The notes below the pieces were generated by a model, which was not told where the DNA came from, did not search any database, and saw nothing but the letters and a program-made list of their open reading frames with translations. This document shows, piece by piece, positions 3,558 through 54,395 of a stretch of DNA of 64,000 nt. The position numbers were made by a program, and so were the translations under genes. Within the stretch, counting starts at the first letter, position 1. Each line of letters starts with the position of its first letter. The stretch is from Naegleria gruberi. Its lineage: Eukaryota. The stretch is taken from assembly GCA_000004985.1 (NCBI GenBank), contig GG738876.1. The stretch is one strand, 5' to 3'.

Positions 3558-6231
3558 ATGGGAGGTCAAAGACATTTGTTTTGGCGCCAAAATTATTTAC
3601 GAAGAGAAAGTTTAAAAAAAATGGAAACACCACCAACAAATCATACTCACGTTGTTATACCACCCTTAATGGTATCAAATGCTACATCAAGTCATAATAT
3701 ATCGGCCTCTCATACTAGTAGTCATCAACATGTTATGGGAAATAATTCAATGATTATCGGAGGTAGTGATGAATATTTAAATGCTTCTATCAATTCTTTG
3801 GATAATTATGGCTACGGATCTTTAGAGAAAATGGCAGCAACACTTACAGAACCATCAAATAGTACGTGTCAGTTTTTAATAATTATTGGAATTGTTTCAA
3901 GTTTTTGGTATGGGATTAATTGAGAAAAAGAAAAAAACAAATCCTCTACATGAAGTTAGAATGAGGGAAAAGCAAATGTTGGACAATCAAAGAAAAAAAT
4001 TATCATCAACTATAGATAGAAATTTGGAAAGAAAAAGATTATCATCAGCCTATACGAATTCGAGAAAGCAGGAGAAGGACTCAAGTGTCAACTTGGGTAA
4101 TTCCATCTCTTTATTAAAATCGCCCAGAGAAATTCAATTATCCCTCAATCCAACTACTCAACTCAAAGAAGACCAAGAAGAGGAGACTGAGTTTGATACA
4201 ACATTTTCAAGAAAATTCCACTATGTACATATTCAAGATGAAGATGTTACTGTAACAAAAGCTTTCAGTAGAGTATCAACAGCCGCCAAAAATCAAAGAA
4301 GAATTAGTACACTTTCAGAATCTTATTTTATTCCTTCGCTTGTAGAATTGTGTGCTAACGAAATTGCTAAAAACTTTGAAAAACGTCCAACATTTGAAAA
4401 AATTCCAACTGAGCTAAGGCAGCTAATTTCAAAAAAGCTCTCTGTCAATATTCCTCTTCAAATATCAGTACCTCTAATCGATGATGATGACTATTGGAAA
4501 AAATGTTGCTTTATGAGATGGTCTATTGGACAACTCGGAACATACTGTACAAAACAAGGAGTGGAGTTATTTCATGAAGAAAACCCAGCAAGAGTTGAAG
4601 ATATCATGATAAAAGGAAGTTTCAAAAGTAGAGTTCAACAAAGATATAAGAAATCAAAAGGAAGTAAGCTGAATCCTGAAGAAGAGAAAAAAGAAGCATC
4701 CAAAACTTGGAAACAACTTTATCTAGAAATTAACTTTGATGAGTTTTTAGAAACACTCCAACCTCAAAAAACCATTCTGCAAGAACTTAAAACTATTTTT
4801 TATCAACCAAAGCCAGAAGAAAAGACTACTTTAAAGAATTCAGAACTTACTACATTGAGAACGCTTCATGAAATCAAGCGAAAAATCAATGAAGAAAAGG
4901 CGCTGAAAGACGAAGTTGCTCTTCTTATGGCTCAAACAGACCCTCAAAAGAAGAAGGGAAAGAAAACAGAGGAAACAGTGATAGATATTCCAGATCCAAA
5001 CTTATCAGTAATTAAAGCATCAGACAGTGACGAGCCATCCAATTGTGAAATATTCCAAAAGTGCCTTCATTCAAATCAAATGAGACCAAATGTGAACTAT
5101 TACCTGTTACACTGCAAAACCTTATCAAAGGAAGAATATGAACAATATCCAATTGAAAAATTTAGAGACAAATTGACAGAACTGTTTGACGGATTGCAAA
5201 GTCAAGGTACTAGTAGATTAAGCAAGATCACTAATGATGACGATATTTTTACATTCTATGAAAGTGCAATCCAAAAAAGAGAACAAAAGATGCATATGAA
5301 TCAAGATTTAAAAATGCAGTATTGGTTATTAAACAAGAAGGAAATGTTGGAAGAATCAGATGCAGATATTCAACAAATGTTCGAGTTTATAAGGAAGAAA
5401 AACCAAGAGCATTTAACAGAGTTATGTAACATGTCAAAAGGTTATGTCAAGGATATTAATATCAGAGGTATTAAGGAGCATATTGATATCCAGGAAATAT
5501 TTGAAATTTTACCTTTCCTTGATACTGTAAGAATCGAATACTCTGCAAGAAATGTTGGTATGACATTCGACACGTCTTTATTGGGAATTAAGAAACGAGA
5601 TTGTCAAATGCTGGCAAAAATACTTTCTGATAGCTCAAAAGCCAAGTTTTTAACTACTTTAGTTTTATCTGAAAACCTTATTGATGACGAGCAAACAAAA
5701 ATTATAACAAGTGGACTTTACCTGAACACGAGAATAACTTCTATTGATTTGTCTCACAATAGGATTAGTGTAGAAGGGTGTAAATCAATTGCAGCCATGT
5801 TAAAGGCAAACAAAACTCTCAAAATTCTTCATATTTCAGACAATGATATCCAAACAGATGGTGCTCTCTATATTGGATCTAGTTTGAAATTCAATTCATC
5901 TTTGAAAGAATTGAATTTAAGCTTGAACAAAATTGGTGATGCTGGAGCTTTGTCAGTAATTACAAACTCTAAAAATTTACAAAAATTGAACTTGGCCAAC
6001 AATGTTATTACAGAGCAAACAGGAAATCAATTAATAAGAAAAATGGAGGAATACAAAGAATCGAATGTTCAAAACAGTTTCTTACCAAAACGATTGGACA
6101 TCTCTGGTAACTTTATTAACATTGATTGTTGTAAAATATTGGAAGACCTATGCTTTGACACTCATTACATTGAACACTTGGATGTACGTCTAAATCAGGA
6201 TATTAAGAAGGAGAGAATTTCTTTAGAATAA
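3558..6231 (+). CDS. Leucine-rich-repeat (RNI-type LRR) protein. Main exon is 3902-6231 (in-frame ATG at 3910). A tentative 5' exon 3558-3861 is joined by a 40-nt intron (3862-3901)
   Basis: C-terminal third shows RNI-like LRRs (LSENLIDDEQTKII..LDLSHNRISVEGCKSIAAML..LHISDNDIQTDGA..LNLSLNKIGDAGA..LNLANNVITEQTG). The track ORF 3886 starts on TTG. The upstream ORF (3558, true ATG) ends in phase 1 at a GTACGT donor at 3862, and an AG at 3900-3901 restores the frame. A 40-nt intron is within the range seen elsewhere here (39-41 nt). Confidence 0.6.
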
Positions 6232-6275
6232 AGACAACAAACCCGCCAAAACTTAAAACAAAACTACAAAAAAAA

Positions 6276-8228
6276 ATGACGTTAGTTCTGAAAGCATCAA
6301 ACAAGTTGGAAATTAATGATGGTATTTGTGTTCAACAGTCGGAGTCATATAGTGATTTAAATCATGTTGTTATCGACAGTATTCCATCATTATTAGGGTT
6401 TTATGAAAAAAAGAAACAAGAAATCAATAAAACCTTAAAGAAGATAAAACAATCAAATAATAGTTGTTATTCAAGACAACACACTGATGATAGTAAGAAA
6501 CAAGCTACAGACAACAAGGCTGGGGATCAAAAACAACAACCCACCTCAAACAATCCTAACAATAATCAAAATCCTCCTACTCAAACTCCAAATAATACTA
6601 ATACACCAGGAGGAGGAAATAACCAACCTCCTCCTAATAACAACCCACCTCCTAACAATAATCCACCACCTCCTAATAACAATCCACCCCCAAACAATAA
6701 TGCAAAAAAACCTGAAGATCAAAAATTTTCAAAGAAACTTGCCAAGTTTACATCTCAATTTAAAGTGAACCCAGAAGGAAAATTCAAAACGTATTGGGAT
6801 CTATTTGTTCTGTTAATCATATTCTACAATTGGGGAACAGTTGCTTACAGATGTGCTTTTTACAAGTCTGATTATTTTTGGATTGGTATTGATTTAGTAA
6901 TGGATTTCATTCTGTGGATTGATATATTGTTGAGGTTTAGAATTACATACTTGGAATTTGGCCTCCCAGTTACAGATTCAAAACGTATTGCAAAGATATA
7001 TGCCAAAAGTTGGGGTTTCTGGATAGATGTATTTGCAAATTTACCCTTTGAGTTTATTGGTTATGGAGCAACACCAAGGTACTGGTCGTTCTATAGGATC
7101 AATAGATATGCCAGAGTTTATAGGTATAATGACTATTTCCAAACATTTGAAGAAGGATTTCCAATTATTCACCCAGCCATTATGAAATTGATTAAGTATA
7201 TTATGTTGTTCGTTGTTTCTCATTGGATTGTTGCAATGTTTTATCAATGGGTTCTTGAAACTGAAGTCACACCATTTTCAGGTTTCTTTCTTGGAGATAT
7301 GTCTCAATCAGAAGCTCAAAAAATCCTACGAGCAATCTATTGGTCAATTGGTCAAATGAACGGATACGCCAATACGAATCCAGATAGTGACTTGGAGACA
7401 TGGTGTATGTTACTTATTACAATTATTGGTTTAGCACTTTACGTTGCTATCGTCGGTACAGTCGGTTCTATCTTGGGTGATTTGAATGCTCAAAAAGAAG
7501 AATTTGAGAATTTCCTTGATGGTATCAAAGCCTTTATGAATTACAGAAAATTGACTCAAGATTTGCAAGCAAAAGTTATTGAATACTACACTTATCTTTG
7601 GAAAACAAGAAAAACCTTAGATGAAGACAAAATGTTAGCAGAACTTCCAGAACATTTGAAGATTGAAGTATCTCTATTTTTAAATAAGGATATTATCCAA
7701 AAGATTCCATTCTTCCAACATTTAGAAGAACAGTTTATCAATTCTCTAGTATTGAAATTGAAACCAAAAGTTACTTTACCAAATTCCTTAATTGTAAGAA
7801 AGGGAGATATTGGAAGAGAAATGTTTTTCATCAACAGAGGTTCTGTTGAAGTTATTGGTGAAGCGAATAAGGAGGGTGTGATTCCTGTTTTTGCTACATT
7901 ATCAGAAGGTTCTTTCTTTGGAGAAATGGCAATCATTAACAATTCCAAGAGAGGAGCATCAATTAGAGCTAAAGGTTATTGCGATCTTTCAGTTTTGACT
8001 AAGGAAGACTTTAAACTTATCATGGAAACCTTCCCAGAAACTGTGAGAGAACAAATTAACAATGAAGTTAAGAAGAGAACTGCTCCTCCACCACCACCTT
8101 CTTCTAATCCACCACCACCTCAACAACAACAACAACCTCCTCAAAGTAGAGCTAATTCCTCATTGACCCTTCCACAACCATCAAGTACAAACAGCAGTAG
8201 ACCATCATCTTCTACTTCAAGAAAATAA
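6276..8228 (+). CDS. Cyclic-nucleotide-gated/voltage-gated-like cation channel with a C-terminal cNMP-binding domain (650 aa)
   Basis: ATG at 6276. Hydrophobic S1-S6-like segments and a pore-like GQMNGYANTNP. Canonical cNMP-binding motif FFGEMAIINNSKRGASIRAKGYCDLSVL. Pro/Asn-rich N-terminus and a poly-Q/P C-terminus. Confidence 0.8.
   Translation: MTLVLKASNKLEINDGICVQQSESYSDLNHVVIDSIPSLLGFYEKKKQEINKTLKKIKQSNNSCYSRQHTDDSKKQATDNKAGDQKQQPTSNNPNNNQNPPTQTPNNTNTPGGGNNQPPPNNNPPPNNNPPPPNNNPPPNNNAKKPEDQKFSKKLAKFTSQFKVNPEGKFKTYWDLFVLLIIFYNWGTVAYRCAFYKSDYFWIGIDLVMDFILWIDILLRFRITYLEFGLPVTDSKRIAKIYAKSWGFWIDVFANLPFEFIGYGATPRYWSFYRINRYARVYRYNDYFQTFEEGFPIIHPAIMKLIKYIMLFVVSHWIVAMFYQWVLETEVTPFSGFFLGDMSQSEAQKILRAIYWSIGQMNGYANTNPDSDLETWCMLLITIIGLALYVAIVGTVGSILGDLNAQKEEFENFLDGIKAFMNYRKLTQDLQAKVIEYYTYLWKTRKTLDEDKMLAELPEHLKIEVSLFLNKDIIQKIPFFQHLEEQFINSLVLKLKPKVTLPNSLIVRKGDIGREMFFINRGSVEVIGEANKEGVIPVFATLSEGSFFGEMAIINNSKRGASIRAKGYCDLSVLTKEDFKLIMETFPETVREQINNEVKKRTAPPPPPSSNPPPPQQQQQPPQSRANSSLTLPQPSSTNSSRPSSSTSRK
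6621..6703. repeat. Imperfect tandem repeat of 24-27 nt encoding (NNNPPP)n in the channel N-terminus
   Basis: Repeated units cctcctaataacaacccacct, cctaacaataatccaccacct and cctaataacaatccaccccca. Confidence 0.6.
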
Positions 8229-8310
8229 AGGTTTCTTTTTTAAAGTCAAACATCACTTTTCCTTGACGAGGTCACATCATTAAAGTAGCCGTTCAATACT
8301 CAAAATAAAA

Positions 8311-9595
8311 ATGCATGATGATGATTATGATGAGGATAAAAAGAGCAAGGAACCACTATCAATATTAGGATTTAATTTATCATATTGTGATGGATATATA
8401 CAATTTATATTACTTGCATCATTTATAATATTCTGTTTTATGATGTCGGGTGTAACACAAGAATATATTTTCACTCAATACAAAGGCTTTGATTTCGGAT
8501 TTTTTGCAACATTAATACAATTTATTGTCTATGCAGGTTTTGGTTATTTTGGTTATAGGAAAACAAAAACCTCTTCCTCCTCAGCTCATTCCGATGCTTT
8601 ATTACGAGTGAATAGTACTTTAAATTTTGAAGATGAAATTAAATTCATTTCGCCTTCAACTTTATTACCAATTAGTAGTAGTGGTAGTAGTAATAATAAT
8701 ACAAATAACAATAATTATACAATGAGCCAAAATACTACTCATCAATACAAGAGTACATTTAATAGTAATTATAGCAATAATACATTTAATAATTTTAATA
8801 CAAATATCAGTAATAATCATACCTATAATAACAATTATAGTACTCAATCAACTCAATCATCATCAACATTGAAAAATTATTTAATAACAATCTTTAATTT
8901 ATTACATTTTGATAACAAACTACCAATTAAATATTATTTTATATTAGGATCATGTATGGTAATTGGTATGGGGTTAGGAAATCAATCATTAGCCTATTTA
9001 AATTATCCAACTAAAGTTTTATTTAAAAGTTCAAAACTTTTAATTACAATGTTTGTGGGTGTTTTACTTTTAAGGAAAAGATACAAAACTTTGGATTATT
9101 TAGCGAGTATTTTCTTACTTTTAGGATTATTTTCACTTGTTGGAGCAAATCAACATCATTCTATTAATAGTGTTAAATTTGAATATTTTGGAGTTTTCCT
9201 TATTTCACTTTCTTTAATTTTTGATTCAATTTCATCAAATTACAAGAGAAAGTACTAGAGAAATNNNNNNNNNNNNNNNNNNNNNNNNNNNNNNNNNNNN
9301 NNNNNNNNNNNNNNACAGTTTTATTAGTTATATTGGATCGTACTATACAAGTAAAATGATAAAACAATATGGTATTCTTGTTGCATTAACAACAACTTCA
9401 TGTAGAAAAATTTTAAGTATAATTCTGAGCCATTTCATATTTCCAAAACCATTTAATTTATTTCATGTCATTTCAATCATGTTGGTATTTGCAGGTGTTT
9501 TTATCAGAGTTTATTGTAAACAAAAGAAAGTAATTGATAAAACACTTTTAAATATTTGGTTCATTTTGAAACAACAAAGATATCAACAAGAATAA
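8311..9595 (+). CDS. UAA/SLC35B-family nucleotide-sugar transporter, interrupted by an assembly gap
   Basis: N-terminal part matches the SLC35B pattern (GNQSLAYLNYPTKVLFKSSKLLITMFVGVLLLRKRYKTLDYLASIFLLLGL). The part after the gap (ALTTTSCRKILSIILSHFIFPKPFNLFHVISIMLVFAGVFI) matches the conserved C-terminal TM region of the same family. The two ORFs (8311-9258 and 9318-9595) are in different frames across the N run. There is a poly-N/S insertion in a loop. Confidence 0.65.
9265..9314. other. Assembly gap (50 N) inside the transporter gene
   Basis: Literal run of n characters. Confidence 1.
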
Positions 9596-10304
9596 ACTTT
9601 CTCTTTGAAAATGAAATTAAAATTACCAATACAGTAAATTGTATTTCCAGATCTTTCCCTTAATTGCATTTCTCTTTATGGTTGTATTCTAAACTCATAA
9701 TTTATTTGGTAACACTACAAAAGAGCACTCAAAGAACGTCAAGAACTATTGTTTGCTTGTCCGCACCCAACAAGTCATAATAAATGAAATTCCACCATGT
9801 ATAAATTCCTCAACAAGTGAACGTTTGAATAATAATATTAACAAACAATGGATCCTTAATTATTTTAGTGCTGTTGATGAACATCAGATTATTCCACACT
9901 TGAAGGTCCTCGCTCAGGGCTGAGCAGCAAACTGCGCACCACACAACAAAGCATTTTTTCATAAATCTCAACGGTTAAATAAATTCTGCATTCGTAATTA
10001 GATTACATTTCTTCAATTTGACACCAAAACAAAATGTTTGAGCGAGACAGTGAACATAACGTTATACAAACTCGTTAGAAGAACACAAAAAAGGATCGGC
10101 CGAATAGAATAGTATGTTTATTACCCAATAATTCTCGCCAATCACGCAGTACAAAAAGACAAAAATGGGATCGTCCCACAAACAAAATCAACAATAAAAA
10201 AAAGGTTAAACTTACTACTGAAAGAATATAGAGATCCACAAAGGATTCGAAAAGTCAACACACAACGCCTTCCTCTCATTGACCCTGAAAAAAGCATTGC
10301 ATTA

Positions 10305-12847
10305 ATGGATGCCTTCACTTGTGCATCTACGGATCAAAATAATCCATCTGTTGGTGGTGGTGTGGAAGCAATTGCTGATTCACCAATTCAAGTTACCACC
10401 AACTTACTCAACGATAATAAGAAAACAACAAAAAACAGTGCAGCCTTGATGCTCTCAAACCAACCGATACCACAATTACATGCATCCACTACTATCACCA
10501 ACACCACTTCTGATATGAACATCAAGATGAGAAGACATGAACAAACTGATGTATCAGCCTCACCTGAAGATGATGAAGATGATGAAAGTCATCACGAATA
10601 TGGGTCTTCGCTCTTTGAAATGAAGCCAGCATCAGGTGTTAAGCCAATTCATAATAATATTAATACTAATAACATTGATTATCAACAACAAGAACCTAGT
10701 ATGCGTCCTCTTTCCGATGGGGGTTCACTTAATCACATGCAAGATGATGACAATAATACACATGCAACAATGATGAACATCAACGACATCCCATCTAATG
10801 CAACATCCACATCAGCATTAATACCATCCATTACATTTACACATGATAGTGGTAATAATAACGATACATCATCAATGTCTAATGCGAGTAGTGTAAATCA
10901 TCAAAATACCACATCTAATTCATCAAACAATAATAACATGTTTGTAACACATGCATCAACATCAGGTAAAATAACATCATCAAAAGGGGGAAAATCCATT
11001 AAATTTCAAATGGAAAATCCATCTGATCCAAATTATAAAAGTGTAACTCAGAAATCAAATTATAAGGATATATCACTTGAGGACATGAGCAAGTATTTTC
11101 AGTAAGTATTAATTATACTCTTAATAATTAACTCAATAAGCCTTCCTCAAACACAGGTATGTTTATTAATGGATTTGAAGTTCTAATATTTGGAATATAT
11201 AATTACATGTTGAATTGTTTTGGAATAATTATTACATTATTTAGGCAGCTGAATTGTTAGGAGTTAGTTTAAGTGAGTATTGCTATTAATATTGTTCAAT
11301 AATTAATCAATAATTATTAAGGTACTTTAAAAAGGAGGTTTTATTCATTTGGAATAGGAAGATGGCCAAGTTATGAAAATAATGGTGTGTCCACTGTATT
11401 ATTATCATCTCTATCCAATCAATCCAATCCAAATCTCAATAATATGAGTGGTGGTGGTATGCCTACTCAAAATAATATGTTAAATATTGTATCACCTGGT
11501 AATGGAACAAGTGCATCCACTCATGTACCTTCTAATGCAATATCGACAAATAATGTTTCACATCCAAATACATTGCATGTTCTTACATCTGCATCATCTA
11601 ACATGTCTTCAAATGTACCTAAACATGTTTCTCCAGATGAGCATCATTATTCCACCCCATTGTTGCAACCTCAAACAACACAACCCCAACTACCTTCTTC
11701 AATAATACATACTCCATCCAAATCGAGTTCAACCTCTTCGTCATCTTATCCATCAATGAATCCTACAATGAATCCTGCTAAGGTATCAACAACTCCAAAC
11801 ACTAGAGTATTTACCCATGAACATCAATATGTCAGACATTCACCTTCAACTCCACCAAATGAACGCCCACAAAGCTCTAACATGTATGAAGAACATGATG
11901 AATCTATTATAAATCATTATCAACAAAAGACACAAACACCACAGGAAGTTCACATTCATCACCACCATTATCACATTTATCAACAACCTTATAATGAATA
12001 CATTTATCCTCCATCCTCAAGCAGTAGGTATTCACATCATCCACCACCTCCACCAATATCATCCTCAATGCCGTATCACCATGTTATGGATGGTACTCGA
12101 AGACCATATCCACCACCTCCACCATCATCACATTCATATCAACACTCTAGAAGCAATAGCTACCATTACTATCCTCCAAGCTCACCAACTTCTCCAAACA
12201 GAGAACGAAACGCACAACATGCCTCCAATCAAACTGTAGTGCAAGGTTCACAGCCACTAGAAAGGCCAAAAAACCAACCAATTCCTATAGCTTCGAATAT
12301 GCAAATAAGGAAGTCATCCTTATTAGATCCCGGTCCACCAGAAACAACCAGACAAAAATCTCCTTCTGAAACCTCTGAAACCTCTCACGAAGACTTTAAT
12401 AGAAGATTAATTTCAAAGTCTTATTTATATCATCCCTATCAAAAACAAACAGGAAATGTTAATTATTATAGACCTATCTCTCCAGAACCACAACCAGTGA
12501 ATGTTTATTCTTCAAGACATGAACCTCCTCCTCCTTCACCATCCACAGCAACACCACAACTACCACAACATCATCATCATTATTCCTCATTTTCTGGTGG
12601 AAATGGTGGATATCCAAGTGGGGAAGGAAAATATTATCATCCAGGTCCAACACATCAAAGTGACCATCAATATGAACCTCTTCCTCCTCCTCATGTTTAT
12701 TCATCATCTTCTACACACCAACCTCCTCCTCATTACTATACTCCACGACATTCTTCAAATTCACCAAATTGGGAAGATAACTCATTAAGGAAGGAAAATA
12801 ACATTGGAAATAATACTAGTGCAAGACAATATCATAATACTCGTTAA
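10305..12847 (+). CDS. Low-complexity His/Pro/Ser/Asn-rich protein. Exon 1 is 10305-11101. A tentative 260-nt intron (11102-11361) joins exon 2, 11362-12847. The two ORFs could instead be separate genes
   Basis: ORF1 has a true ATG and its stop TAA lies within a GTAAGT (donor at 11102, phase 2). AG at 11360-11361 (or 11369-11370) restores the frame of the 1.46-kb downstream ORF, whose track 'M' is a GTG. Both parts share S/T/N/H/P composition with poly-His and PPPP tracts. Confidence 0.45.
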
Positions 12848-13867
12848 TAATACCAGAAATTTAATGATGTACTGAGGCTTAAATGTTCGACATAGTGCCA
12901 ATACCCTTTTGGTAGATAAATTAAATCACCAGGTTGTAAAACAAATTCGCATAATAATTTTGCATTGTTGAAGAGTGGAAAATCTTCAACTTGATTCAAT
13001 TCTTGAATTTTGGAAACACTAAATTCTTTAGAATTTCTTTTAAAATTGCTACTTACTGCGCATATTTACTTTCCATTCCAAATGGATAAAAGTTAACTCC
13101 CTTTTCAAATTGGATTATATTTGACGATAAATATATTTTAAACATATTTTAAATATATATAGTTTAACATGTGAACTTACTTCTTGTGGTTCATATAATT
13201 TCCATAACTTTTCACCATAAATTTGAATGAATAAATTATCTACAAGTGGTCTATCATAATGTAATGTTGTTCTTGTTCTTGTTGTTCCTAAAAAGAATGA
13301 ATTAGCTCCCAAAATTGAATAAGGTGAAGAATTAAATAAATTTGGAATTGTGAAATCATTACTCAATCCAAGCAAATCTCTTGTTGGAACTTGTTGTAAA
13401 TATAACCAATGAGAATTAACACATTTTCTTGTTTCTTCTTGAATTTTTAAATGATCAATCACTTGATCAAATTTCATTTTCTTTAATTTTCATCATTAAA
13501 TAATTTTAGCACTCAATTTAATTACCTTTTCATAATTGGGTGGATGTGATAATCCATTCTCTCTCAATTCACTAACAAATACATCAAGATTATTAAATCT
13601 ATTCTTCCAATAATTTAACATTTCCAATTCTCGTTCTTTCATTTCCTTTACCATTTCTTCTTGATTTGATGAAGAAATTCCCAATTGCCATTCTTCTTTT
13701 ACCTTTTTCCATTCCGAATCTTCACTTCCAAAGAGTGAAATATAATTTTTAATAATTACTGGTTTTCTAAATTTAATGTATTGATTATAAAATTCCTCCG
13801 ATGTTGGAATTTGATCTTTTCCATTAAATTCTAGTACTGTAACAGATCCTTCCAAGATTTTGACCAT
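12844..13867 (-). CDS. JmjC-domain protein, JMJD7-like. Four exons: 13867-13526, 13480-13181, 13096-13057 (40-nt microexon) and 13001-12844
   Basis: Motifs align to JMJD7: FYNQYIKFRKPVIIKN, ANSFFLGTTRTRTTLHYDRPLVDNLFIQIYGEKLWKLY, FIHLEW, and LQPGDLIYLPKGYWHYVEHLSLSTSLNFW. Donors are GTAATT, GTAAGT and GTAAGT. Introns are 45, 84 and 55 nt. ATG at 13867 (the track start at 13918 is a GTG). The stop overlaps the stop of the convergent gene. Confidence 0.7.
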
Positions 13868-14396
13868 TTTTTTTAAGAGTTGTTTTATTGTAAAGAGTTT
13901 AAAGTTACTTATTTTCACCAGAAATGGAAATTAAGTTGACTAGAACGAATAGTTGTCATCTTTACAAAAAGTAAATTTCAAATAGTAAACACGTTGTAAT
14001 TCAATTTAGCCATCATACTCATTGAAATTCATTATCCACAATTGATTTCAAATGTGTTTCACTAGTCCGCAATTTAAATTCCAATCTCTTTCATAATAAT
14101 ACTTGCATTCATTAATATCATCATTGGAGTGCATTATTCAATCAAAATAGAATAAACAATAAGAATCTTCAATTAATAATGAAAATTTTATTATTGAGAA
14201 TTCAAATGTTTTTCAAGGAGATAAAATTTTATCAACGTTTTTAATGAGAAATTACAAGAGAAATCAACAAACGGAAGAATACAAAAAAAAACAACTTATA
14301 ACCCAATAATATTGTTATCCAATTTATTAATTGGTAGTTTTCATTCTGATTGAATATAATAATAATTTGAAACATCATTTCGAATATTAAAAAAAT

Positions 14397-15197
14397 ATGA
14401 AACATCAGTGTTGCAATCCTTCTTCCGATGCTCATCCAAATCATCATCACGATGATAATGGAGAACATAATTTGATTCTGGAAACAAATGGTAAAAATCA
14501 TTTTGAAGTTCCACTCATTGAAAAGGATAAAGTTTCCTCACTTTCGAATGAAGAAAAGAAAAAGATATTCGAAAATTGTGTAAAGAATATGATAACATTA
14601 ATGGGTGAAGATTATGAAAGAGAGGGTTTAGTAAAAACACCATCAAGAGTATTTCACAGTTTTGAATCATTATGTGAAGGTTATAATGTTAAAGATCCAA
14701 AAGAAATTTTAGGAAAAGCCTTATTTAGGTAATTTTTTTATTTAATAATTTTACAATAATTTTAAAAATAATTTTTTAATATATATAATTAAAATAGTTC
14801 AGATAATTCACAAATGGTAGTTATTAGAGATATTGAAACATATAGTTTATGTGAACATCATTTATTACCAGTTATAGGAAAATGTCATGTTGCATATATT
14901 CCAAATGGTAAAGTTGTTGGACTTTCAAAAATTCCACGACTTGTCGATGTCTATGCTAGAAGATTACAAATTCAAGAAGAATTAACTGAACAAATAGCTC
15001 AAGCAATTGTTGAGACAATTCAACCTGAAGGAGTTGGTGTGGTTATTGAAGCTAGACATTTATGTATGGAAATGAGAGGTGTTAAAACTACTCAGTCAAC
15101 TACAATTACTTCTTCTTTAAAAGGACAATTTTTAAAAAAGGAAACTAGAAAGGAATTTTTTGATATTATTAATAGAAATGCTTCAAATAGATTGTAA
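14397..15197 (+). CDS. GTP cyclohydrolase I. Exons 14397-14728 and 14798-15197, with a 69-nt intron
   Basis: [57 protein letters not shown] and [18 protein letters not shown] are hallmark GCH1 motifs. Donor AG|GTAATT at 14729 and acceptor AATAG| at 14797 keep the frame. Confidence 0.85.
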
Positions 15198-16252
15198 ATA
15201 ATTTTTAACAATGAGAGAGTTATAAATATATTAAAATTTATAACATTTTAAGAGATAATTTTATAAATGGTAGAATTGATGTTAATATCCAGATTCTGTT
15301 GGCGAATTGTTTGATTGTATTGTCTATTCTAATTGTTATTGAAATCATATTCTTACGAATGATAGAGTTAATCTGTGAATTGACTTGAGATAAACAATTT
15401 AAGAAAGTTGGCATGATAAAAAAAAACATTGAGCTTTCGCTTATGTGTAAGTTGAATATTTAAACAATCTGCCAATACTCAAACCATCTCTATCAATGAC
15501 AGTAGGCGATAGCTTACTTAATAATTGCACATGAAAAAAAGAGTGACAATAACTTCTTTGAACATTTTTAATGAATTGTTTATCATTACAGTGAAATTGT
15601 ATGAGTTCTGGGAATAATTATTGGAATAATTGAGGTATAATGGAGGAATAGGAAGGTAAATTTACCTCATTCCCCATAGAGGCATGATTTCTATATTGTT
15701 TAGATTGTTGAGGTCATCAAAAAGCAAGGCTCAATGTTATCTTCAGCCATGAATTTAAACTTTAATTTGAATTATCTAAATATAATGAAGAGAATGGTTC
15801 ACTTTCACGGTAGTTTAAAGATTCTTAAGCTGCATTGAGAGATTCACTATAATTATAATCCAGAATGTGCTTGATGTAGATTGGAGTATGGTATATGACC
15901 ATTTAAAAAAGGGAAATGAAGAACCAAATATCCTTGATTCGGTGGGTAGAATCCAACTCTTTTCTTATTGAGATAAATGCGAATCCAAATATTAAACCAT
16001 CAACTTGTTATTAAACACCATTTTCACAAGTCCAACAAATTCACCTAATAAGGAAAGATATGATGACACTTGTTTGGCAATTCAGTCGCCCACTCATTTC
16101 AGTAGACCTAAATGTAACTTTTCTCGCTAGTTGTCATCTTTTGTTTATGGAAGAGTTGCCCTACACCAACCATCATCATCATACTGAGTGTCATTGTCTT
16201 TCGAATTAACTGTTTATTTGCTCAATCATGAAAAAAACACCAAAACAACACA

Positions 16253-16798
16253 ATGAGTAAACCGCATGCTGATTGTTTTCTGTTGGATTGTACTTCTTCT
16301 CCTACTAGTTTATTAGATCCACCACTTTTAAAGTTGGACATTGTTGATTTTTATTATTGTTATCTCCATTTACAAAATCAACAATCTTTCTCTAACAACT
16401 GTTTGAACCGTGTTAGCTTGTCTGGTCGGATTTCAAATGAGTTTAGTTCATCATCAATATTAGGTGATGGTTGCTTTAATACATGTGTCAATGAACAAGC
16501 ATGTCAAACAGCAAACAATCTCAATGTTTCATCTTCACAAAACGAAAAACTACTTCAAAACAGTAGAGTTTGTACAAACTCTAAAAAGCAACAGAAATAT
16601 TCGTCATCAAACCACAGCAGTGCATGTTTGAAAAAACCAAAAAAACAATTTACCAATCACAGTCTTTACATTGAACAACATTCAAAGAGAAGAAGTTTAT
16701 ACATTAGAAAGAATTCCAATAATCATAATAATCCAATTCAAAATTCCATGCAAATGAATTTTCCAGTATTAACCTTTCACACATTTGTATTAGAATAA
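16253..16798 (+). CDS. Hypothetical 181-aa Cys/Ser-rich protein
   Basis: ATG-initiated ORF with no recognisable motif. Convergent with Spt6, 76 bp between stops. Confidence 0.3.
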   Translation: MSKPHADCFLLDCTSSPTSLLDPPLLKLDIVDFYYCYLHLQNQQSFSNNCLNRVSLSGRISNEFSSSSILGDGCFNTCVNEQACQTANNLNVSSSQNEKLLQNSRVCTNSKKQQKYSSSNHSSACLKKPKKQFTNHSLYIEQHSKRRSLYIRKNSNNHNNPIQNSMQMNFPVLTFHTFVLE

Positions 16799-16874
16799 AG
16801 AGTACATGCTACAAGACATTGTTTCCATAAAACTATCAACCCTAGTATTAATTACAAATAATAAATTATATAGT

Positions 16875-19800
16875 TTATTCCCATTGTCCACCTTGGTGAC
16901 TTGGTTGAACTCGGTTAGATGCATCAGATTGACATAATTTCTTGAATGCATTAATTAACTTTACAGTATCTTTGAATTGTCTTCCAGCAAAGTAATAACC
17001 ATCAGGTGTAACGGTGAATGATTTTTCTTGGAGTGTATGTCTTCCAGGAAGATAGAAGAAATAGAACCTTGCTGCTTTGGAAGTACTCATGACAATCTTA
17101 TATGGGATAACACTTGGATTCTTTTTCTTTTCTTCTCTCAAATGAACCTTCAATTCATCTCTGTTACCATTAAAATACTTGCTACTGGACATTAATTGAT
17201 TTGAATATTCCATTAAACTTTCAACACAATAAAAGATAACTTCATCCAAGTCACTAAATATCTTTCCATTAACTTTAAGGGTACTACCAAGTGAATTGAT
17301 ATCCTTTCCTTTCTTTTCTTCTTCAATATCATAGTTGATATAAAGATTAGTGCTAAATTTAAATGTGATAGCTAAATGGTCATATCCCTTACTACTTGGT
17401 CGAATGACTAATTCACCAGGACCCTTATCAGCTAAGAAGGCAACAGCTTGAGAATAATCAAAGTCTTTAAATTGTGGATGGTCAATTTGTCTGTGGAATC
17501 TCTTCTTTGAAGGGGCTGATTTACGGTGTTGATCCATAATAGATTCTGCCTTTGGTGCATAGATATCTTCTTTTGGAGGTACAAGATGTACTTTGAATTG
17601 CTTGTATTCAACTCTTTCAATTTCAAAGTATCTTTCTTCTCCTTCCCTTAGAGAGACATTTCGGTTATACAATGCAATAACACCATAAAGACCATTATCT
17701 AATTTACAAAATATGATTCTTTCGCCAACGGTTACAACTGTAGCAAACACTTGTTGACCAGGTGCCAAAGACTTTTTAGTTTCATGAGTCACAAGTTCGA
17801 ATACCTTCTCGTCATCATTGTTGATACTCTTGAATTCATATCTAGGGTCTTTGAATGGATATTTAAGTTCTTCCTTGATATCCTTCAAAGTAATATGAGT
17901 CTTACCATAATTTCTCTTTTCGAGTTCGTCAGCATAGGCATCCAAATCTAATTCGTCCAATGCTTGAGGCTTTTTGAAGATTTTGTGAATCTTTTCAGTC
18001 TTTAAATTTTCAGTTTCCAGACCATCTTCAGCCATTTTCTTAGCAAGAGGATAAGACAATAAGTGAACTCTGGTAGCATCGATAACCTTGAAAGCTCTGG
18101 CCATAGAGTCTCTGGCAGCAATAGTTGGTGGTCTTCTTACAATCAAGAAACCAATACTGTTCAAAGCAACATTTCGTTGTTCGTTCAGGATATTGTTAAT
18201 AGATTCTCTGTCAGAGACGCTATCTTCTTGTTTGATCTTATTAATTAAGAGTTCTGCCTTTCTTGGACCCAAACCACTGAGGAATCTCAAAGTTGGTTGT
18301 AATTGAGGGAACAAGACAATTCTATTAATTTCTACACCAACACGGTTAACAACTCTAACAAGAGACTTTTCAAGTGACTTTACAAGTTGTTCTTTTGGAA
18401 CCATATCTTGAAGCTCATGGAACTTGTAACAAAGGAGTTCTTCGTTATTAAAAAGTCCACAAATTTCTGTCAATGGATCTCTCAATCTTCTACCAACAGA
18501 AATAGCTCTTCTAACTACGTTATTTTCTTGTGGATATTCATTTGTAGCTCTTGATGAATTTTCATAGATTCTTGCAATATCATCAGGAACGATTTCATAG
18601 TTAATGTTGAAGATTGTACCTCCTTGTTTTGTACGTTCAAAGGCTTCTTTCATTTTCTTGAAAATCAAACCTCCACATGCAGCCAAAGCAACAACAGATG
18701 GTTGATGAGATGCGATCATATCATTTACACTCTTGACCATAGAGTCGATCAGTTGCCTGTCAGAATCGCTAGTATTACCAGTTGTGTGAGGATGGCCAAT
18801 TGGCCAAACTTTCTTATCAATCATAGTACCATTTTCATCAAGCATAACCCAAGTTGTCTTTTCGCCTTCTTCACCACCAGGAACACAACTGAGGATTTTG
18901 TATTTGGTTGGTCTTGGCTTTTCATCTTCAAAGAATTCGTCATAATCAAACTTAGCTCTTGGGTTATTACCATAAGGACTCTCTTCAAACAACATCTTTG
19001 TTAAATTGGATTCACACAAATCAGAAACAAAGTCTGCAGCCTTATTTCTAAGAATAGTTTTTACAGAATGTTGAATAGTTTTGTTCAAAATACCCTTTGC
19101 TTCTTCAATAATCTTAATTCTTTGTTCATTCCATAAAGTTGCAATTTGAGAGTGCTTTTGGCTCAAATAAAGCACATCTGCTTTTAACAACCCATCAAAG
19201 TGTCTATCTTCTAAGAATAAAGATACCTTGATAAGACCTAGATTTTCGTACTTCAATAATTTAAGGAAGCTTTCCTTATTGTCATGAGCATATCTGACGT
19301 GAGCAGCCCATTCATCTCTGAACTTGGTAAACATGGTTCTACCATCTTCTAAGAGAGAAATAATATCCGAGCCTTCAACAGATTTACCCTTCTTGGTCAA
19401 TTTCACTTTGATAGTAGAATTATTTTCAAAGCAACGACGAACTAGCTGTCTGATCTTAGGTTCATGAGCAATTTGGAATGCACAAATATGTCTTGCACCC
19501 CCCAAAACACTTTCAATACTTTCAAAAGTTCTAGTTTTAAAAACTTCAGCAGCAGAAGCAGGATCAAGTGCATGATCTTGGGTTTCAACAATTTGGAAAG
19601 TACTTTCTAAATTTTCAGCATATTGATATGATGAAAGAGACATTTGTGATGCTAAAATTGCCAAACCCTCTTTCTTAGCCATAGTATATAAATCTCTCTT
19701 AGTAGGTCTCTTTAGGGTAGTAAGTTGATTTTCTGATTCTTCATTGAGAACAGTAGTAAAATGAAGATGATAGTCGTTAATCTCATCCAAAGTTTCACTT

Positions 19801-26298: not shown

Positions 26299-27612
26299 AT
26301 GGATGATGGTTCAAGCATAGACCAGTACAGGGCAAGCGTTACACCTAGCCCTAATCAAGTGACGACTGTGATGATGTCTCATCGACCTTCCTCATCAGTA
26401 GATAAGGCGGGAGTTAGTAATGATCCACAATCAAATTATAAAAAAGCTCTTCATCTGGATCCTTTTCTTCCCTCAGGAGCCTTCTTTGAGGAAAGGTATT
26501 TAGGATTGCCACCAGCAAGAGATGATGATAATATAGTTACGAGAGCAAGAACCGATCCTAAAATTCATTATGATGACTCGAATGTATTGGTTAAACATAA
26601 GAAATATATTAAACAACTCCAACAACAACAGGAGGCTAAAAGACATGAAAAGATTGAAAGTGAGCTTAATTCAGAGAGAAAGAAAACTTCATTCTCTGAA
26701 ACACAAGCAAAAATTAGACAGGCATTGATGAGCGAACTTGATATGCCAAAAGAAAAGGTTGAAGAATTAATGGAAGGAAAAACAAAACAACTGGATCAAA
26801 TACTTGTAGAACAAAAGAAGAAGGAAAAGGTTTGTTTCTTTTCAAATAATTTAGAATTAAATTTTGTTTCAGAAAAAGAAAGTGGAAAAACCTGAATGGG
26901 CAATGACAACAGATGAACTTGAGAAGAAGGAGGAAAAGGAGATTCAAGATGTATTGGACTTTGTAAATGATCTTGATTTTGAAGAATGTATGTTTCAATG
27001 ATTGTAAATATTATTTACATTTTTAATCAAGTTATTAACGATTTTGAGATTAAGGAAGCTCTATCTGTCATTCAGGATAGAGTTACAGAGATGAAGAAGG
27101 ATAAGGATGTCAATGTACAAACTTCAAGTAGTAGCCAACAAGACACTATTACCAAGCAACCAAGTCCTCCCCAAAGCATTAAGGGTGATGATGATGCTGT
27201 ATCTGTTGTATCTGTTACTTCTAGTGTAAGGTCTGAGTCAAGAAAGAAAAAGCTTCTTGAATTATCTTCATCGATTGATCATGATAAAGATTGGAATTCC
27301 TCAACTAAGCTTGATGAAACTAACCGAACTAAAACATTAACAATCACCACAGATTCAGACGTAATGAATAACATGTCCAAAATCCACTCTAAGACTTCAA
27401 TAGGTCAAGTAATTTTGAAGGTAACCCCAACATACAGCTTGCCCATCGTAACTCATTCAGATAAGCATCAATCAATCCCAACCGTTCATCATGTAGGTGA
27501 AATTGTTTCAAGTGATGATAGAGGTAATACTGAAAGAGTTATTGTAAAATTGAGAAAAGACAAAAATAATGTACAAAATCTTCCATATATGTATAGATGT
27601 CCTTCAATATAA
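26299..27612 (+). CDS. Hypothetical charged/coiled protein. Exons 26299-26829, 26873-26987 and 27032-27612
   Basis: Two tiny introns of 43 and 44 nt (GTTTGT...CAG and GTATGT...CAAG) restore frame between three ORF segments. No family recognised. Confidence 0.6.
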
Positions 27613-27621
27613 ATATTTAAT

Positions 27622-30600
27622 TTATTTGTTTAATGAATCGACTTCGACCCATTCATTTTTGTCTTCTTCAATTACTTGATTATTAAGTCTATAATTGTCT
27701 TCCTTTGTTAATTCAATTAAATCCAATTGAACAAGTCTGTTAATTTCATAGTCATCACATACATTTGCATTGTTGCTGGTAGCCATAAATAATTGTTCTT
27801 GTCTTCTTTTTGAAGAAAGTTCTGAAGCAAAGCTTTTAGCAGATTTCAAATCAGATTTCAAGATTTCATAATTAATTGGTTTTCTAATAGCGTTAGAAGT
27901 ATTATTCGAATCATCAGTCATTTGTTCTATGTTATTATTATTGTCTAAAAATTGATCCAAGTATGGTGAAAAGAATACTTGAACATCTATTATTTTGAGT
28001 CTTGTGGTATAGTCGCTCAAAAAGATCCATTTGTAAATTTGGAACTCTTCTGGTAGTTTAACAGTAGCAACATCCAAGAATTTCATAGCATCCATAATAA
28101 CAGTTGAATCTTCATCATCAACAATCTTGTCGCTAAATACTCTCATAATTTCAGTAATAATCATTGGCCACCATTTTCTTAAATTATCTGTCGAAATTCT
28201 AGTAATTAAAACACGATAGAATAACAAAACGCTTGTAATAAGAGCATTATTACTTTGAGGAGAACCAGAAACCTTCAATGATTCAACAATTTTTTCTACA
28301 ATGGCTGGTACAAAATTATTGTAATCATTAATATTACCAACATATAACATGAAAGCAATTCTCTTCAATAATCTAGCTCTAGAAAATACTTCTGTACTAC
28401 TTGATGTTAAAATACTTGAAGTTGATGCAAATCGAGTCAATAAATCTTGAACAAGTGATGTATCAGTAATTTCCATATTTTTGAAAATTTTAAACCAATA
28501 CTTGAATGTACTAGCTCCACAATAGAAGAAACAATTATCTGCAATTGTATCAAATATTTCTTTTTTGAGAGGTCTCATATTTAAAATTGCTGTACTGAAA
28601 GTAGAAATTAATTTAACAGCTTGTTTAACTCTTCTTAAATTTGTTGTTTCTCTATTCTTAATAATTAAAAATAGTGGATAAATAATGGCAATAATTAATG
28701 GCTGTCCTAAATCTTTTTCTCCATACAAATAAGTTATTATATCATTTAAAGTGGATGATAAAAGTCTTAAAAAGTTAAAAGATGGATCACTGTGATCGTG
28801 TAAGGATTTTCTAAAGATGGAATCTTTTACATTATCTAAATTCTGTAAATTATTAGTTGACGAGATTTTCTTGATTTCCTTGATGATTTCATTACGTTTT
28901 TCATTGATATCCTTATTTGTTAGAGTAAAGCAACATTCTATCAACTTTTGAGTATTATCTTTCAATGTAGATTTCAATTTTTTATCATTTTGTAGATATG
29001 ATCCCCAACTAGATAAAAATTGATGTACAACTCTTAATAATAATGATAATGTTAATAGATCAGAGTTCTTATCAGATGTTAGTGAAGAGATCAGAGTTAC
29101 AAGCTTGTTTGCTATTTGAGAATAAATTTCACTCTTAATACACTTTTTCAAGTAAAAGAAGAGAAGGTGAAGAGAGTAATTGTCCTTCATCTTTTTCATA
29201 GCAATCTCTTCTTGAGGGTTGTCATGGGATAATATCAAATCAATAAGACTTGTAACTACAATATCAGGTGTTGTGTTATCGCAATTATTTAAAATATCAA
29301 TAAGATGACTATCCAAAGAATGTTCATCAGAATAAATTGAAATGTTTGAATCGGTATGAGTCTTTGACCACAACACAAGTATAGAAGCAATTAATTGTAA
29401 TGGGAATCTAACAATTAATGGATCAATAAATTGAAGAATACTTTTTTCAATAGATAATTTAGAATGAAGAGAGCCTGATTGAGAAATAGAATGAATTTTT
29501 GTAGTTTGCTTATTGGTTGTTTCTTTTGGTATACCACTAGAAATTCTTAAAGCTTGCCATGTTATGGCCATGGACTCTATAATGTTTGGAAGTTCAGAAA
29601 GCATGTATTTTCTTGCTTCATAGTCAGGAGAAATAAAACCAGAGTTATGATCATCTTGTGTAAAGACATCCTTCATAAAATCTGTGAATGCCTTGAATGG
29701 CATTACAATACCTGATGGTGTCTCCTCATTTGGTTTTGGTTCTTCAATTTCTCTTAAAACACAATAACTTGAAACTTCCCTCAACCCTCCAATAAGAGTT
29801 CGAATAGCTTGTCCTCTAAAGCTATCTATACCCAAGGATGAATATTCACGAATAATGTCACAAATGAGTGGAACCAACATGTTTACAAATTTTGGTAATT
29901 GATTATGGAAATGAGGAAGGAATGAAGAAATACTATCTATCCAATAACTTAATAATGAATAAGAATGGAAAGAATCAGAAAGTTCAACTCTACTTGAATG
30001 TCTAACTCCTTCAATAAGTGTTATGAGAAAGTTTGGCGAGTTGAGTAAACTACTTATTGGTAGAGACTCCTTTGAGGTATCATTGTTTGATTTTGTAGGA
30101 CTAGCCGTGATTGGAAACAGATTTTGGAGAGGTTTCATTGGAGTATTGGAGTCTAATTGTTCAATAATTGTCTTGAGTATTTCAAGTAATTCAACTTGGA
30201 ATACAGTATCATTATCATCAATAGCAATCTTTAAATGATATAAAATACATTCACACAAAGATTTGCTCAATTCTGTTGCTTTTGAGGATTGTCTTCCATA
30301 GATTAGAATATCTTTCAATAGAGAAGCTGCACTTGTTCTAATACATTCCTCAAGTGAAATATCACTTGAAGAGGTTGTCGTTCCATTATTCTTATTAATA
30401 TAAATTCCACATTCCATCATCTTGATACAAATAACTGAAATGATAGAAAAGTAATCCCTATCTTGTAGATTCACTAATTTGGATGGTAAATTTTCTTCAT
30501 TTAAATAATATGGTCTATTTACAATAAATTTGTCATAAATGTTTAAAACTTCCTCACTGGCAATCATTCTTCCAGTTTTTTCAACAAATAATTGAGGAGA

Positions 30601-53931: not shown

Positions 53932-54366
53932 ATGAGACTCCTTGTTCATAACATGATGTGTTGTTTAAAGTGTGACACATTCCCACTTAAAATTGAAGCA
54001 ACCGAAGTTGAAAATGAAGAACAAGAAGACAATAAGGAATTTATTTTAAATATGTTGCAAAGAGTTGATTATGAAGCATTAAAAGGTGCCGCAAAGGATG
54101 TATGTATTTTGAAAAAAAGAAAAATTAATTAATTCCGATTATGTTTTGATTAGCTTTCTATTGAAGGTTTACCTGATATTTTACCAGAAAATGTTGGAGA
54201 AAATGAAGCTGCTATGAAATCATTGCATAAACTTCTTTTGGAATTGCAAGTTAAGAATGGAGATTTGGTTTGTACTAATCCACAATGTGGAAGAAGATAT
54301 CCAATCAAGGATAGAATACCGAACATGGTTTTGAGAGATGATGAAGTTATGGAACTGAAAAAGTAA
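53932..54366 (+). CDS. TRM112: Trm112 (methyltransferase activator subunit). Exons 53932-54099 and 54154-54366, with a 54-nt intron
   Basis: MRLLVHNMMCCLKCDTFPLKIEATEV...LVCTNPQCGRRYPIKDRIPNMVL matches Trm112 including the zinc-knuckle-like C...C..C..C pattern. Donor GAT|GTATGT and acceptor GATTAG|. Confidence 0.8.
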
Positions 54367-54395
54367 ATAAATTGGAAAATAATTATTTATCTAGC

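Follow-up and report, generated by a model that had tools for sequence, protein, structure and literature searches.

Two protein-coding genes of Naegleria gruberi, an RWP-RK transcription factor gene on the plus strand and a putative JmjC/Cupin_8 hydroxylase gene on the minus strand, meet tail to tail on a single TTAA (Table 1). We consider it most likely that this is a junction of two genuine genes with zero spacer, and that it arose neutrally, through genome compaction. The sequence at 12840-12851 is ctcgTTAAtaat. The plus-strand open reading frame (ORF; 11387-12847) ends with CGT TAA and is followed by a second in-frame TAA, and the minus-strand ORF (12844-12999) has TAT TAT TAA as its terminal codons. 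The sequence and the ORFs thus bear out the convergent stops on one TTAA, at 12844-12847, that a first-pass annotation of this DNA had proposed. The 2-nt overlap which it assigned to the coding sequences (CDSs) is that of the two stop codons (12845-12846), as the CDSs themselves, stops included, overlap by 4 nt (12844-12847).

The 3' ends of the two genes therefore face each other on opposite strands, with overlapping CDS ends, and both partners are protein-coding. Without a spacer between them, either gene can only have a 3'UTR that is antisense to the last coding exon of its partner, and the earlier claim that each 3'UTR lies wholly antisense to the other gene's coding sequence is supported by geometry. 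The 3'UTR of the RWP-RK gene would be antisense to JmjC exon 4 (13018-12844) for its first 175 nt, and that of the JmjC gene to RWP-RK exon 4 for about 1.5 kb.

Table 1. Features at the two convergent junctions of the 64-kb window (the whole stretch of DNA analysed)
Feature	Position	Strand	Remarks
RWP-RK exon 1	10305..11101	+	Transcription factor, spliced model; ATG to donor CA/GTAAGT
RWP-RK exon 2	11141..11156	+	16-nt microexon; completes H, encodes LPQTQ
RWP-RK exon 3	11245..11272	+	AAELLGVSL; model, orthologue and Pfam match
RWP-RK exon 4	11322..12847	+	Domain end GIGRWPSY, long His/Pro/Ser-rich low-complexity tail, NTR-TAA-TAA
AUUAAC	12843..12848	-	Overlaps JmjC stop; differs by one mismatch from AUUAAA, which N. 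lovaniensis has in this position
Shared TTAA	12844..12847	.	+ stop TAA 12845-12847; - stop TAA, complement of 12846-12844
AAUAAU	12846..12851	+	Candidate 3'-end signal only; one mismatch to N. gruberi hexamer; overlaps RWP-RK double stop
AUUAAA	12920-12925	+	Next candidate signal of RWP-RK gene
JmjC exon 4 (last)	12844..13018	-	Ends SLNFWYY-TAA
JmjC exon 3	13057..13100	-	GVNFYPFGMESKYA and first 2 nt of a split His codon, completed by exon 4
JmjC exon 2	13181..13480	-	HxD iron-binding motif (LHYD)
JmjC exon 1	13526..13867	-	JmjC/Cupin_8 hydroxylase; ATG at 13867
Second junction	27610..27624	.	+ TAA 27610-27612, 9-nt spacer ATATTTAAT, DOP1 TAA as complement of 27624-27622

Spacing and conservation of convergent genes

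In N. fowleri and N. lovaniensis, the RWP-RK/JmjC pair lies within an eight-gene collinear block. The spacer at the orthologous junction is 9 nt long in N. fowleri and 16 nt long in N. lovaniensis; the exact overlap of the stops is thus not conserved in these two species, whose spacers are unrelated in sequence. The adjacency of the two genes has been kept since the split between N. gruberi and N. fowleri, an observation which, taken alone, also fits selection for linkage.

Short spacers are found at other convergent gene pairs as well. The window and five related contigs provide 16 convergent junctions (six of them taken from automated annotation of uncharacterised contigs), with spacers of -4, 1, 3, 9, 9, 11, 11, 16, 29, 34, 45, 49, 76, 91, 497, and 1848 nt (median of about 22 nt). 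For example, a JmjC-family gene is separated from a RUN-domain gene by 3 nt. A second pair in the window, for which stops 9 bp apart had been reported, is confirmed at the ORF level (27610-27612, and TTA at 27622-27624), its minus-strand gene being DOP1 (Pfam DOP1_C, 6.8e-26; Dopey_N, 1.2e-11). As the median spacer of about 22 nt is shorter than the published median 3'UTR of N. gruberi (39 nt, PMC11529991), convergent transcripts in the Naegleria lineage should, as a rule, overlap in antisense; that such junctions are common genome-wide is an estimate drawn from only 16 of them. Our literature search turned up no paper that explicitly describes overlapping CDSs of convergent genes in Naegleria.

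The shared TTAA is itself no more than chance would provide, as this tetranucleotide occurs 718 times in the 64-kb window, each copy closing one frame per strand, and as two other -4 junctions are found there between open frames, 50 codons or longer, that are spurious. When the TTAA junction was searched for a bidirectional terminator-like structure, no hairpin, inverted repeat, or other shared element was detected, and RNA folds at this site were no better than those of shuffled sequences (z = -0.5 and +0.9). The corresponding z-scores at the second junction were -0.4 and -2.0.

Polyadenylation signals were assessed by the rules in PMC11529991. According to that study, AAUAAA seems to define N. 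gruberi 3' ends well, and this hexamer is overlapped by 11-13% of stop codons. AATAAA lies on or abuts the stop at 10 of the 36 long-ORF ends of the window. A stop which doubles as part of a poly(A) signal is seen in DOP1 (AAUAAA, 27626 to 27621, minus strand) and in both N. lovaniensis orthologues of the TTAA pair (AUUAAA), and UAUAAA (27608-27613, plus strand) overlaps the other stop of the second pair. At the TTAA junction, neither AAUAAA nor AUUAAA lies on a stop, where only AAUAAU (plus strand) and AUUAAC (minus strand) occur, and neither hexamer is found within 70 nt downstream of the RWP-RK or JmjC stop. The first canonical AAUAAA for the JmjC gene starts at 12701, within the RWP-RK CDS, and is preceded by UGUA 14 nt before; as it lies 142 nt downstream of the stop, the JmjC 3'UTR could be long. 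Completion of the stop codons by polyadenylation, as in Blastocystis, was considered and is unnecessary, both genes having a complete genomic TAA.

These data bear on a first alternative to neutral compaction, in which the arrangement was selected for regulation, convergent transcription or an mRNA duplex making RWP-RK and JmjC expression mutually exclusive or coupled, as in yeast cis-natural antisense pairs. The two genes are indeed adjacent, with spacers of at most 16 nt, in three Naegleria species, and given published 3'UTR lengths (PMC11529991), expression of both must, by geometry, produce overlapping transcripts; moreover, yeast convergent genes with short spacers are described as forming mRNA duplexes and interfering with each other (PMC3900390, PMC6993858). 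However, the exact overlap is not conserved between species, the collinear block explains why the genes are adjacent, unrelated gene pairs (including the JmjC-family/RUN-domain pair) are equally tight, and the junction has no common structure or motif. We thus regard such regulation as unlikely, and as far as can be read from the DNA, nothing appears to support a dedicated coupling mechanism at this site, be it coupled termination or regulation. Highly improbable, in our opinion, is the more specific proposal that the persistent tight pairing (at most 16 nt) of RWP-RK and JMJD5-like genes across Naegleria, with a spacer collapsed to TTAA in N. gruberi, reveals a selected convergent-transcription switch. 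Under this proposal, either gene, when expressed, would repress its partner by polymerase collision or mRNA duplex formation, for instance during differentiation, and the mechanism would include the loss of canonical poly(A) hexamers from the two stops.

Support for the two gene models

A second alternative is that one of the stops is not real, as a result of a missed 3' intron or an alternative last exon, in either the JmjC gene or the RWP-RK tail, or of the decay of one gene into a pseudogene in N. gruberi. Both models were built in this analysis from homology and splice consensus, and the collection of 5.8 billion proteins that we searched contains the N. gruberi product of neither gene, so that no independent model is available (other N. 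gruberi proteins are present in it, and NAEGRDRAFT_80179 is identical to an ORF of the window). The lack of a canonical AAUAAA near either stop might also be taken to favor an artefact. Evidence from the two genes points the other way.

On the plus strand, the first-pass annotation had described a His/Pro-rich gene ending at the TTAA. Its end was correctly placed, but this segment is the tail of an RWP-RK transcription factor whose gene has four exons, and lies in the last of them. The RWP-RK domain (PF02042, 6.6e-15) covers residues 255-297 of the spliced model and includes GIGRWPSY, and hence the RWP motif, which places the gene among the RWP-RK transcription factors; the match spans exon junctions, and the N. 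lovaniensis orthologue also has PF02042. Upstream, exon 1 matches this orthologue in tblastn, as IKFQ(M/I)ENPSDPNYKS(V/I)TQKSNYK, and inclusion of the microexon restores KYFHLPQTQAAELLGVSL, which forms one continuous HSP in N. lovaniensis. When the full protein was used as query for homologues, low complexity swamped the results and only the N. lovaniensis orthologue was returned.

The low-complexity tail itself has a strong coding signal. Its GC content by codon position is 0.53/0.51/0.10, and the last 130 codons stay open in only 3 of 20000 mononucleotide and 42 of 20000 dinucleotide shuffles, which supports a CDS reaching the stop at 12847. Tail length varies between species. Counted from the shared SY(L/R)YHPYQ motif, the N. 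gruberi protein has about 130 further residues, compared with about 45 for N. lovaniensis and about 39 for N. fowleri; even between the latter two, the position of the stop differs by 6 codons.

On the minus strand, the predicted protein matches Cupin_8 (PF13621, 7e-34) and PF08007 (5e-13), and is 62-68% identical to its orthologues. Its metal-binding HxD...H motif is intact, LHYD being the same in all aligned sequences and YWHYV providing the downstream His, a signature which suggests a JmjC/Cupin_8 2-oxoglutarate oxygenase. All splice sites are intact in the model, in which a 38-nt intron (13056-13019, GTAAGT...TTTAG) yields KYAH/VSKIQ, as in homologues. A 20-nt intron was also tried and was rejected, because it adds six residues relative to homologues in the alignment, while the 38-nt intron restores KYAH/VSKIQ.

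The C-terminus of this protein, NFWYY followed by the stop, also appears to be real. NFW[YF][YF] directly followed by the stop is the C-terminus of all five full-length homologues, and human JMJD5 chains end one residue past the aligned FWW. The alternative by which the overlap would disappear, namely splicing from a GTATTA donor after TGG to a further exon, is not supported, as homologues keep the terminal WYY. The gene had been called JMJD7-like, a label that we do not retain: in a search of PDB, the protein is closer to JMJD5/KDM8 (E of about 1e-15) than to FIH (about 2e-11), TYW5 (about 3e-6), or JMJD7 (about 5e-6, with an alignment covering only the last 45 residues).

Finally, annotations of N. 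lovaniensis and N. fowleri put both gene ends at equivalent positions. With a conserved JmjC terminus, an intact metal-binding motif and splice sites, and an improbably long open frame in the RWP-RK tail, a gene-model artefact is quite unlikely. Scarcely credible is an assembly or sequencing error, such as a small deletion removing a real spacer of about 10-20 nt, as both frames run cleanly into the junction, the JmjC terminal residues are conserved, and there are no local repeats or other hints of collapse, although the scaffold is a draft with a 50-N gap 3.5 kb away and sister-species spacers measure 9 and 16 nt.

A probable by-product of genome compaction

Under neutral compaction, the junction may be explained as follows. 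The JmjC C-terminus is fixed, and the TTAA within its terminal TAT-TAA, being palindromic, reads as a stop on either strand. The complement of the two Tyr codons and the stop reads TAA-TAA in the RWP-RK frame, so the RWP-RK tail, drifting in length between species, would have run in N. gruberi to a TAA that it could not avoid. The two transcription units would then overlap in antisense by some tens of nucleotides, as would, probably, the two mature mRNAs. The same overlap would be expected at most convergent neighbours, the stops of which are typically 0-50 nt apart, in a lineage where short 3'UTRs go along with many poly(A) signals overlapping stop codons.

The geometry is identical to that of prokaryotic 4-nt convergent overlaps on [TC]TA[AG], in which one tetranucleotide is a stop on both strands. 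Bacterial transcripts are terminated by hairpins or Rho; unlike prokaryotic overlaps, the one described here involves capped, polyadenylated, monocistronic eukaryotic mRNAs, so that UTR-over-CDS antisense is forced. The same neutral model applies to both: genes that extend at random in the 3' direction until the next in-frame stop is reached account for the length distribution of prokaryotic convergent overlaps (Kingsford 2007, as cited in PMC3887535).

Among eukaryotes, 645 convergent cis-natural antisense pairs with overlapping 3' ends are reported in Saccharomyces cerevisiae (PMC3900390; PMC6993858). Like them, the N. gruberi genes have facing 3' ends on opposite strands and transcripts that are necessarily partly complementary, a short spacer being the key parameter. 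As these reports present them, yeast pairs usually overlap in their UTRs and keep separate CDSs, whereas in N. gruberi 4 nt are shared by the CDSs themselves and the UTR of either gene covers a coding exon of its partner. Duplex formation and interference were shown experimentally in yeast, while the N. gruberi pair is known here from sequence.

N. gruberi is free-living and has a genome of about 41 Mb. Overlapping transcription is known from the compacted genomes of microsporidia (Encephalitozoon cuniculi, Antonospora locustae) and nucleomorphs (Williams et al. 2005, PMC1182411; Corradi et al. 2008; both cited in PMC2803860), where, as cited there, shrunken intergenic regions push 3'-end signals into neighbours and transcripts extend into or across adjacent genes of either strand, which is read as a by-product of compaction. 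N. gruberi, however, is not a reduced parasite, and its 3' ends seem to be well defined by AAUAAA (PMC11529991) rather than being those of run-on transcripts. Its own dual-use stop/poly(A) signals (PMC11529991) follow the same compaction logic in the same organism, as in DOP1, where the stop lies inside AAUAAA; in contrast, neither stop of the TTAA junction lies inside a canonical hexamer, the two found there having one mismatch each.

The TTAA junction thus looks like an expected outcome of compaction and not like a new mechanism. Its value is mostly for annotation, as genes at junctions of this kind may escape gene finders that forbid overlaps or expect room for UTRs. In addition, the locus provides a clean, testable example for a wider question that arises from the published 3'-end maps of N. 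gruberi, namely how cleavage sites are chosen when a whole 3'UTR covers the coding sequence of a neighbour, and it raises the question whether the double-stranded RNA that such overlap could produce is of any consequence.

Two genes ending on one TTAA

In the window, a plus-strand RWP-RK gene and a minus-strand JmjC gene meet tail to tail where positions 12840-12851 read ctcgTTAAtaat. The plus-strand open frame (11387-12847) terminates ...AAT ACT CGT TAA, its stop at 12845-12847 being directly followed by a second in-frame TAA, and the minus-strand open frame (12844-12999) terminates ...TGG TAT TAT TAA, with its stop on the complement of 12846-12844. Bases 12845-12846 are common to both stop codons, and the coding sequences, counted with their stops, have four bases in common (12844-12847), rather than the 2 nt given in the first-pass annotation, which had rightly seen the stops overlap on this TTAA. 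The second junction, between plus-strand gene 26299-27612 and DOP1 (minus strand), is as described there: TAA at 27610-27612, spacer ATATTTAAT, and TTA at 27622-27624. The observation is correct and both genes are real.

The JmjC gene encodes 286 residues matching Pfam Cupin_8 (7e-34) and JmjC_2 (5e-13). The best relatives come from N. lovaniensis and Willaertia magna (62% identity locally, 66-68% in the alignment), and the N. lovaniensis protein shares one 90% cluster with N. fowleri FDP41_001669. A 20-nt third intron was rejected as implausible, homologue alignment indicating that the 38-nt intron 13056-13019 is correct. Among solved structures, JMJD5/KDM8 matches best (E about 1e-15), followed by FIH (about 2e-11) and TYW5 (about 3e-6), while the JMJD7 match (about 5e-6) is limited to the last 45 residues; the initial "JMJD7-like" label is thus replaced by JMJD5-like Cupin_8 hydroxylase. 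All five full-length homologues terminate directly in NFW[YF][YF], and human JMJD5 chains stop one residue past the aligned FWW. Human JMJD5 and the N. gruberi protein alike terminate directly behind their last beta-strand motif (FWW and FWYY, respectively). Splicing from TGG/GTATTA to a further exon, considered initially, is not supported, because it would strip the residues with which every relative ends.

A His/Pro-rich ORF is indeed present on the plus strand, but the gene extends upstream: three introns join this ORF to another (10305-11105), yielding a 788-residue predicted protein with an RWP-RK domain (PF02042, 6.6e-15, residues 255-297). Its conserved blocks IKFQMENPSDPNYKSVTQKSNYK..., LPQTQAAELLGVSLS, and RFYSFGIGRWPSYENN have counterparts in the N. 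lovaniensis RWP-RK gene C9374_007365. A 39-nt and an 88-nt intron enclose a microexon of this gene, whereas LPQTQAAELLGVSLS is a single uninterrupted exon in N. lovaniensis, a comparison that indicates an intron gain or loss between the two species. The 130 codons past the last conserved motif are open in 3 of 20000 mononucleotide and 42 of 20000 dinucleotide shuffles, with strong codon periodicity (GC at positions 1/2/3 = 0.53/0.51/0.10), and the N. lovaniensis and N. fowleri annotations have the orthologue terminate in an equivalent low-complexity tail. Tail statistics and sister-species annotations support the predicted stop as the probable true gene end.

Features of the convergent junctions and their surroundings (window coordinates unless a contig is named; negative spacers are overlaps)
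Feature	Position	Strand	Remark
JmjC/Cupin_8 gene	13867-13526, 13480-13181, 13100-13057, 13018-12844	-	four exons; homology and splice model
RWP-RK microexon	11141-11156	+	16 nt; completes H, encodes LPQTQ, inside RWP-RK domain
AAUAAU	12846-12851	+	spans RWP-RK double stop
AUUAAA	12920	+	further RWP-RK candidate signal
AUUAAC	across JmjC stop	-	AUUAAA in N. lovaniensis
First AAUAAA for JmjC	from 12701	-	142 nt downstream; UGUA precedes
AATAAA-at-stop examples	6226-6232, 8223-8229, 16793-16799, 16874-16880, 27621-27626, 54364-54371
Eight-gene block	3886-20354		LRR / Ion_trans-cNMP channel / UAA transporter / RWP-RK / JmjC / GTP cyclohydrolase I / one variable gene / SPT6
N. gruberi junction	12844-12847		-4
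N. lovaniensis junction			...TAT TAT TAA, 16-nt spacer attaatttcagtcttt, TTA
N. fowleri junction			...TAT TAC TAG, 9-nt spacer taaaacatg, TTA
Window spacers			-4, 9, 29 (Trm112-like / unknown), 76 nt (unknown / SPT6)
L001 (N. lovaniensis) spacers			16, 49 nt
L005 (N. fowleri) spacers			9, 91 nt
L002 (Willaertia) spacers			497, 1848 nt
L003 (uncharacterised eukaryote) spacers			11, 45 nt
L004 (uncharacterised eukaryote) spacers			1, 3, 11, 34 nt

Origin of the overlap

N. lovaniensis and N. fowleri carry the orthologous RWP-RK/JmjC pair, likewise convergent, inside an eight-gene block that the three species share. The block is collinear despite protein identity of only about 60-70%; its variable gene, placed between GCH1 and SPT6, encodes an ABC transporter in N. 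lovaniensis, but the genes at this place in N. fowleri and in the window (16253-16798) lack any Pfam domain. The overlap itself is not conserved, spacers being present in both sister species. As JmjC keeps its end in all three Naegleria, the RWP-RK end is the moving one: past the shared SY(L/R)YHPYQ motif, the N. gruberi tail runs for about 130 residues, against about 45 for N. lovaniensis and about 39 for N. fowleri, and even these last two species have stops six codons apart. In Willaertia a different gene neighbours JmjC, 497 nt off, and on L004 the gene for a protein of the same JmjC subfamily abuts an unrelated RUN-domain gene (3-nt spacer).

Compaction, with a drifting tail meeting an anchored end, is the most likely explanation of the junction. 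On one side lies a conserved JmjC end, on the other a freely drifting low-complexity RWP-RK tail, and under genome compaction the tail would have lengthened, or the spacer been lost, as far as the first stop that could not be avoided. Wherever TAA or TAG follows a terminal Tyr codon, the result is always a two-strand stop, [TC]TA[AG]; the pairs are TAT-TAA in N. gruberi and N. lovaniensis JmjC and TAC-TAG in N. fowleri. The complement of the JmjC Tyr-Tyr-stop end is TAA-TAA in the RWP-RK frame, and thus sets a hard limit on 3' extension of that ORF. This explanation carries over to eukaryotes the neutral "extend to the next stop" model of prokaryotic convergent overlaps (Kingsford 2007, cited in PMC3887535). 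The -4 geometry is also cheap to obtain: the window holds 718 TTAA copies, each closing one frame per strand, and spurious open frames of 50 codons or more meet there in two further -4 junctions.

A gene-model artefact at one or both gene ends, such as an overlooked 3' intron, is unlikely, as the support for the stop ends (homologues, tail statistics) and the sister-species comparison speak against it. Selected regulatory coupling, in which RWP-RK and JmjC would affect each other through transcriptional interference or mRNA duplexes, has a precedent in yeast (PMC3900390, PMC6993858), but no feature examined at the junction supports it and we consider it improbable. An assembly error is possible in principle, but there is no sign of one.

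3'-end signals and spacing of convergent genes

No canonical hexamer lies near the stop of either gene. The base needed for a JmjC AUUAAA now opens the last RWP-RK codon (CGT), so that the overlap may have cost JmjC a dual-use signal. At the window base composition, chance alone would place an AAUAAA within 142 nt in about one case in five (our estimate). Neither an inverted repeat nor an unusually stable fold was found at the TTAA junction. Elsewhere in the window, AATAAA lies on or abuts the stop at 10 of 36 long-ORF ends (typically gaaTAAa), including DOP1 and both members of the convergent 16798/16875 pair, which agrees with, and locally exceeds, the 11-13% of N. gruberi stop codons reported as embedded in AAUAAA ("dual use"; PMC11529991).

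We compared 16 convergent pairs with available gene ends in the window and five related contigs, those of L003 and L004 being automatic ORF-style calls on unidentified eukaryotic contigs. Spacers have a median of about 22 nt and are at most 49 nt in 12 pairs. Convergent stops on L004 (Logan ERR14790941) lie 3 nt and 1 nt apart (3872-3880 and 8290-8292); near-zero tail-to-tail spacing thus reaches beyond Naegleria. In N. gruberi direct RNA sequencing, the median 3'UTR is 39 nt, and 22 nt for dual-use-stop genes (PMC11529991). Where two UTRs of about 20-40 nt face each other across a spacer of about 20 nt, convergent transcripts should normally overlap in antisense. Such overlap is expected to be the norm in this lineage and no peculiarity of the RWP-RK/JmjC pair, for which we infer that both mRNAs reach into the last exon of the partner by tens of nucleotides. 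The earlier suggestion of antisense overlap is sound, but generic for Naegleria and relatives.

Annotation and significance

Window G+C is about 31%, and introns are short (GT...AG). The first 2 kb (1-2000) have 16% G+C and are crossed by a 1089-codon minus-strand ORF (122-3391) without a Pfam match. A 50-N assembly gap (9265-9314) immediately follows ORF 8311-9258, and probably interrupts a UAA transporter gene, because this ORF matches only part of the corresponding profile.

No N. gruberi protein for RWP-RK or JmjC (10305-13867) was found in a collection of 5.8 billion proteins, in which other N. gruberi proteins from the window are present: minus-strand ORF 55069-56109 is identical to NAEGRDRAFT_80179 / XP_002675765.1, and a second ORF shares a cluster with NAEGRDRAFT_69003. 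The reference annotation may lack both genes, possibly owing to the overlap of their coding sequences. Known categories cover the phenomenon (tail-to-tail cis-antisense pairs, overlapping transcription in compact eukaryotic genomes, and dual-use stop/poly(A) signals), while the RWP-RK/JmjC pair itself appears to be previously undescribed. The main practical value of the finding lies in annotation, and the pair is also well suited as a test locus for how 3' ends form over coding sequence.
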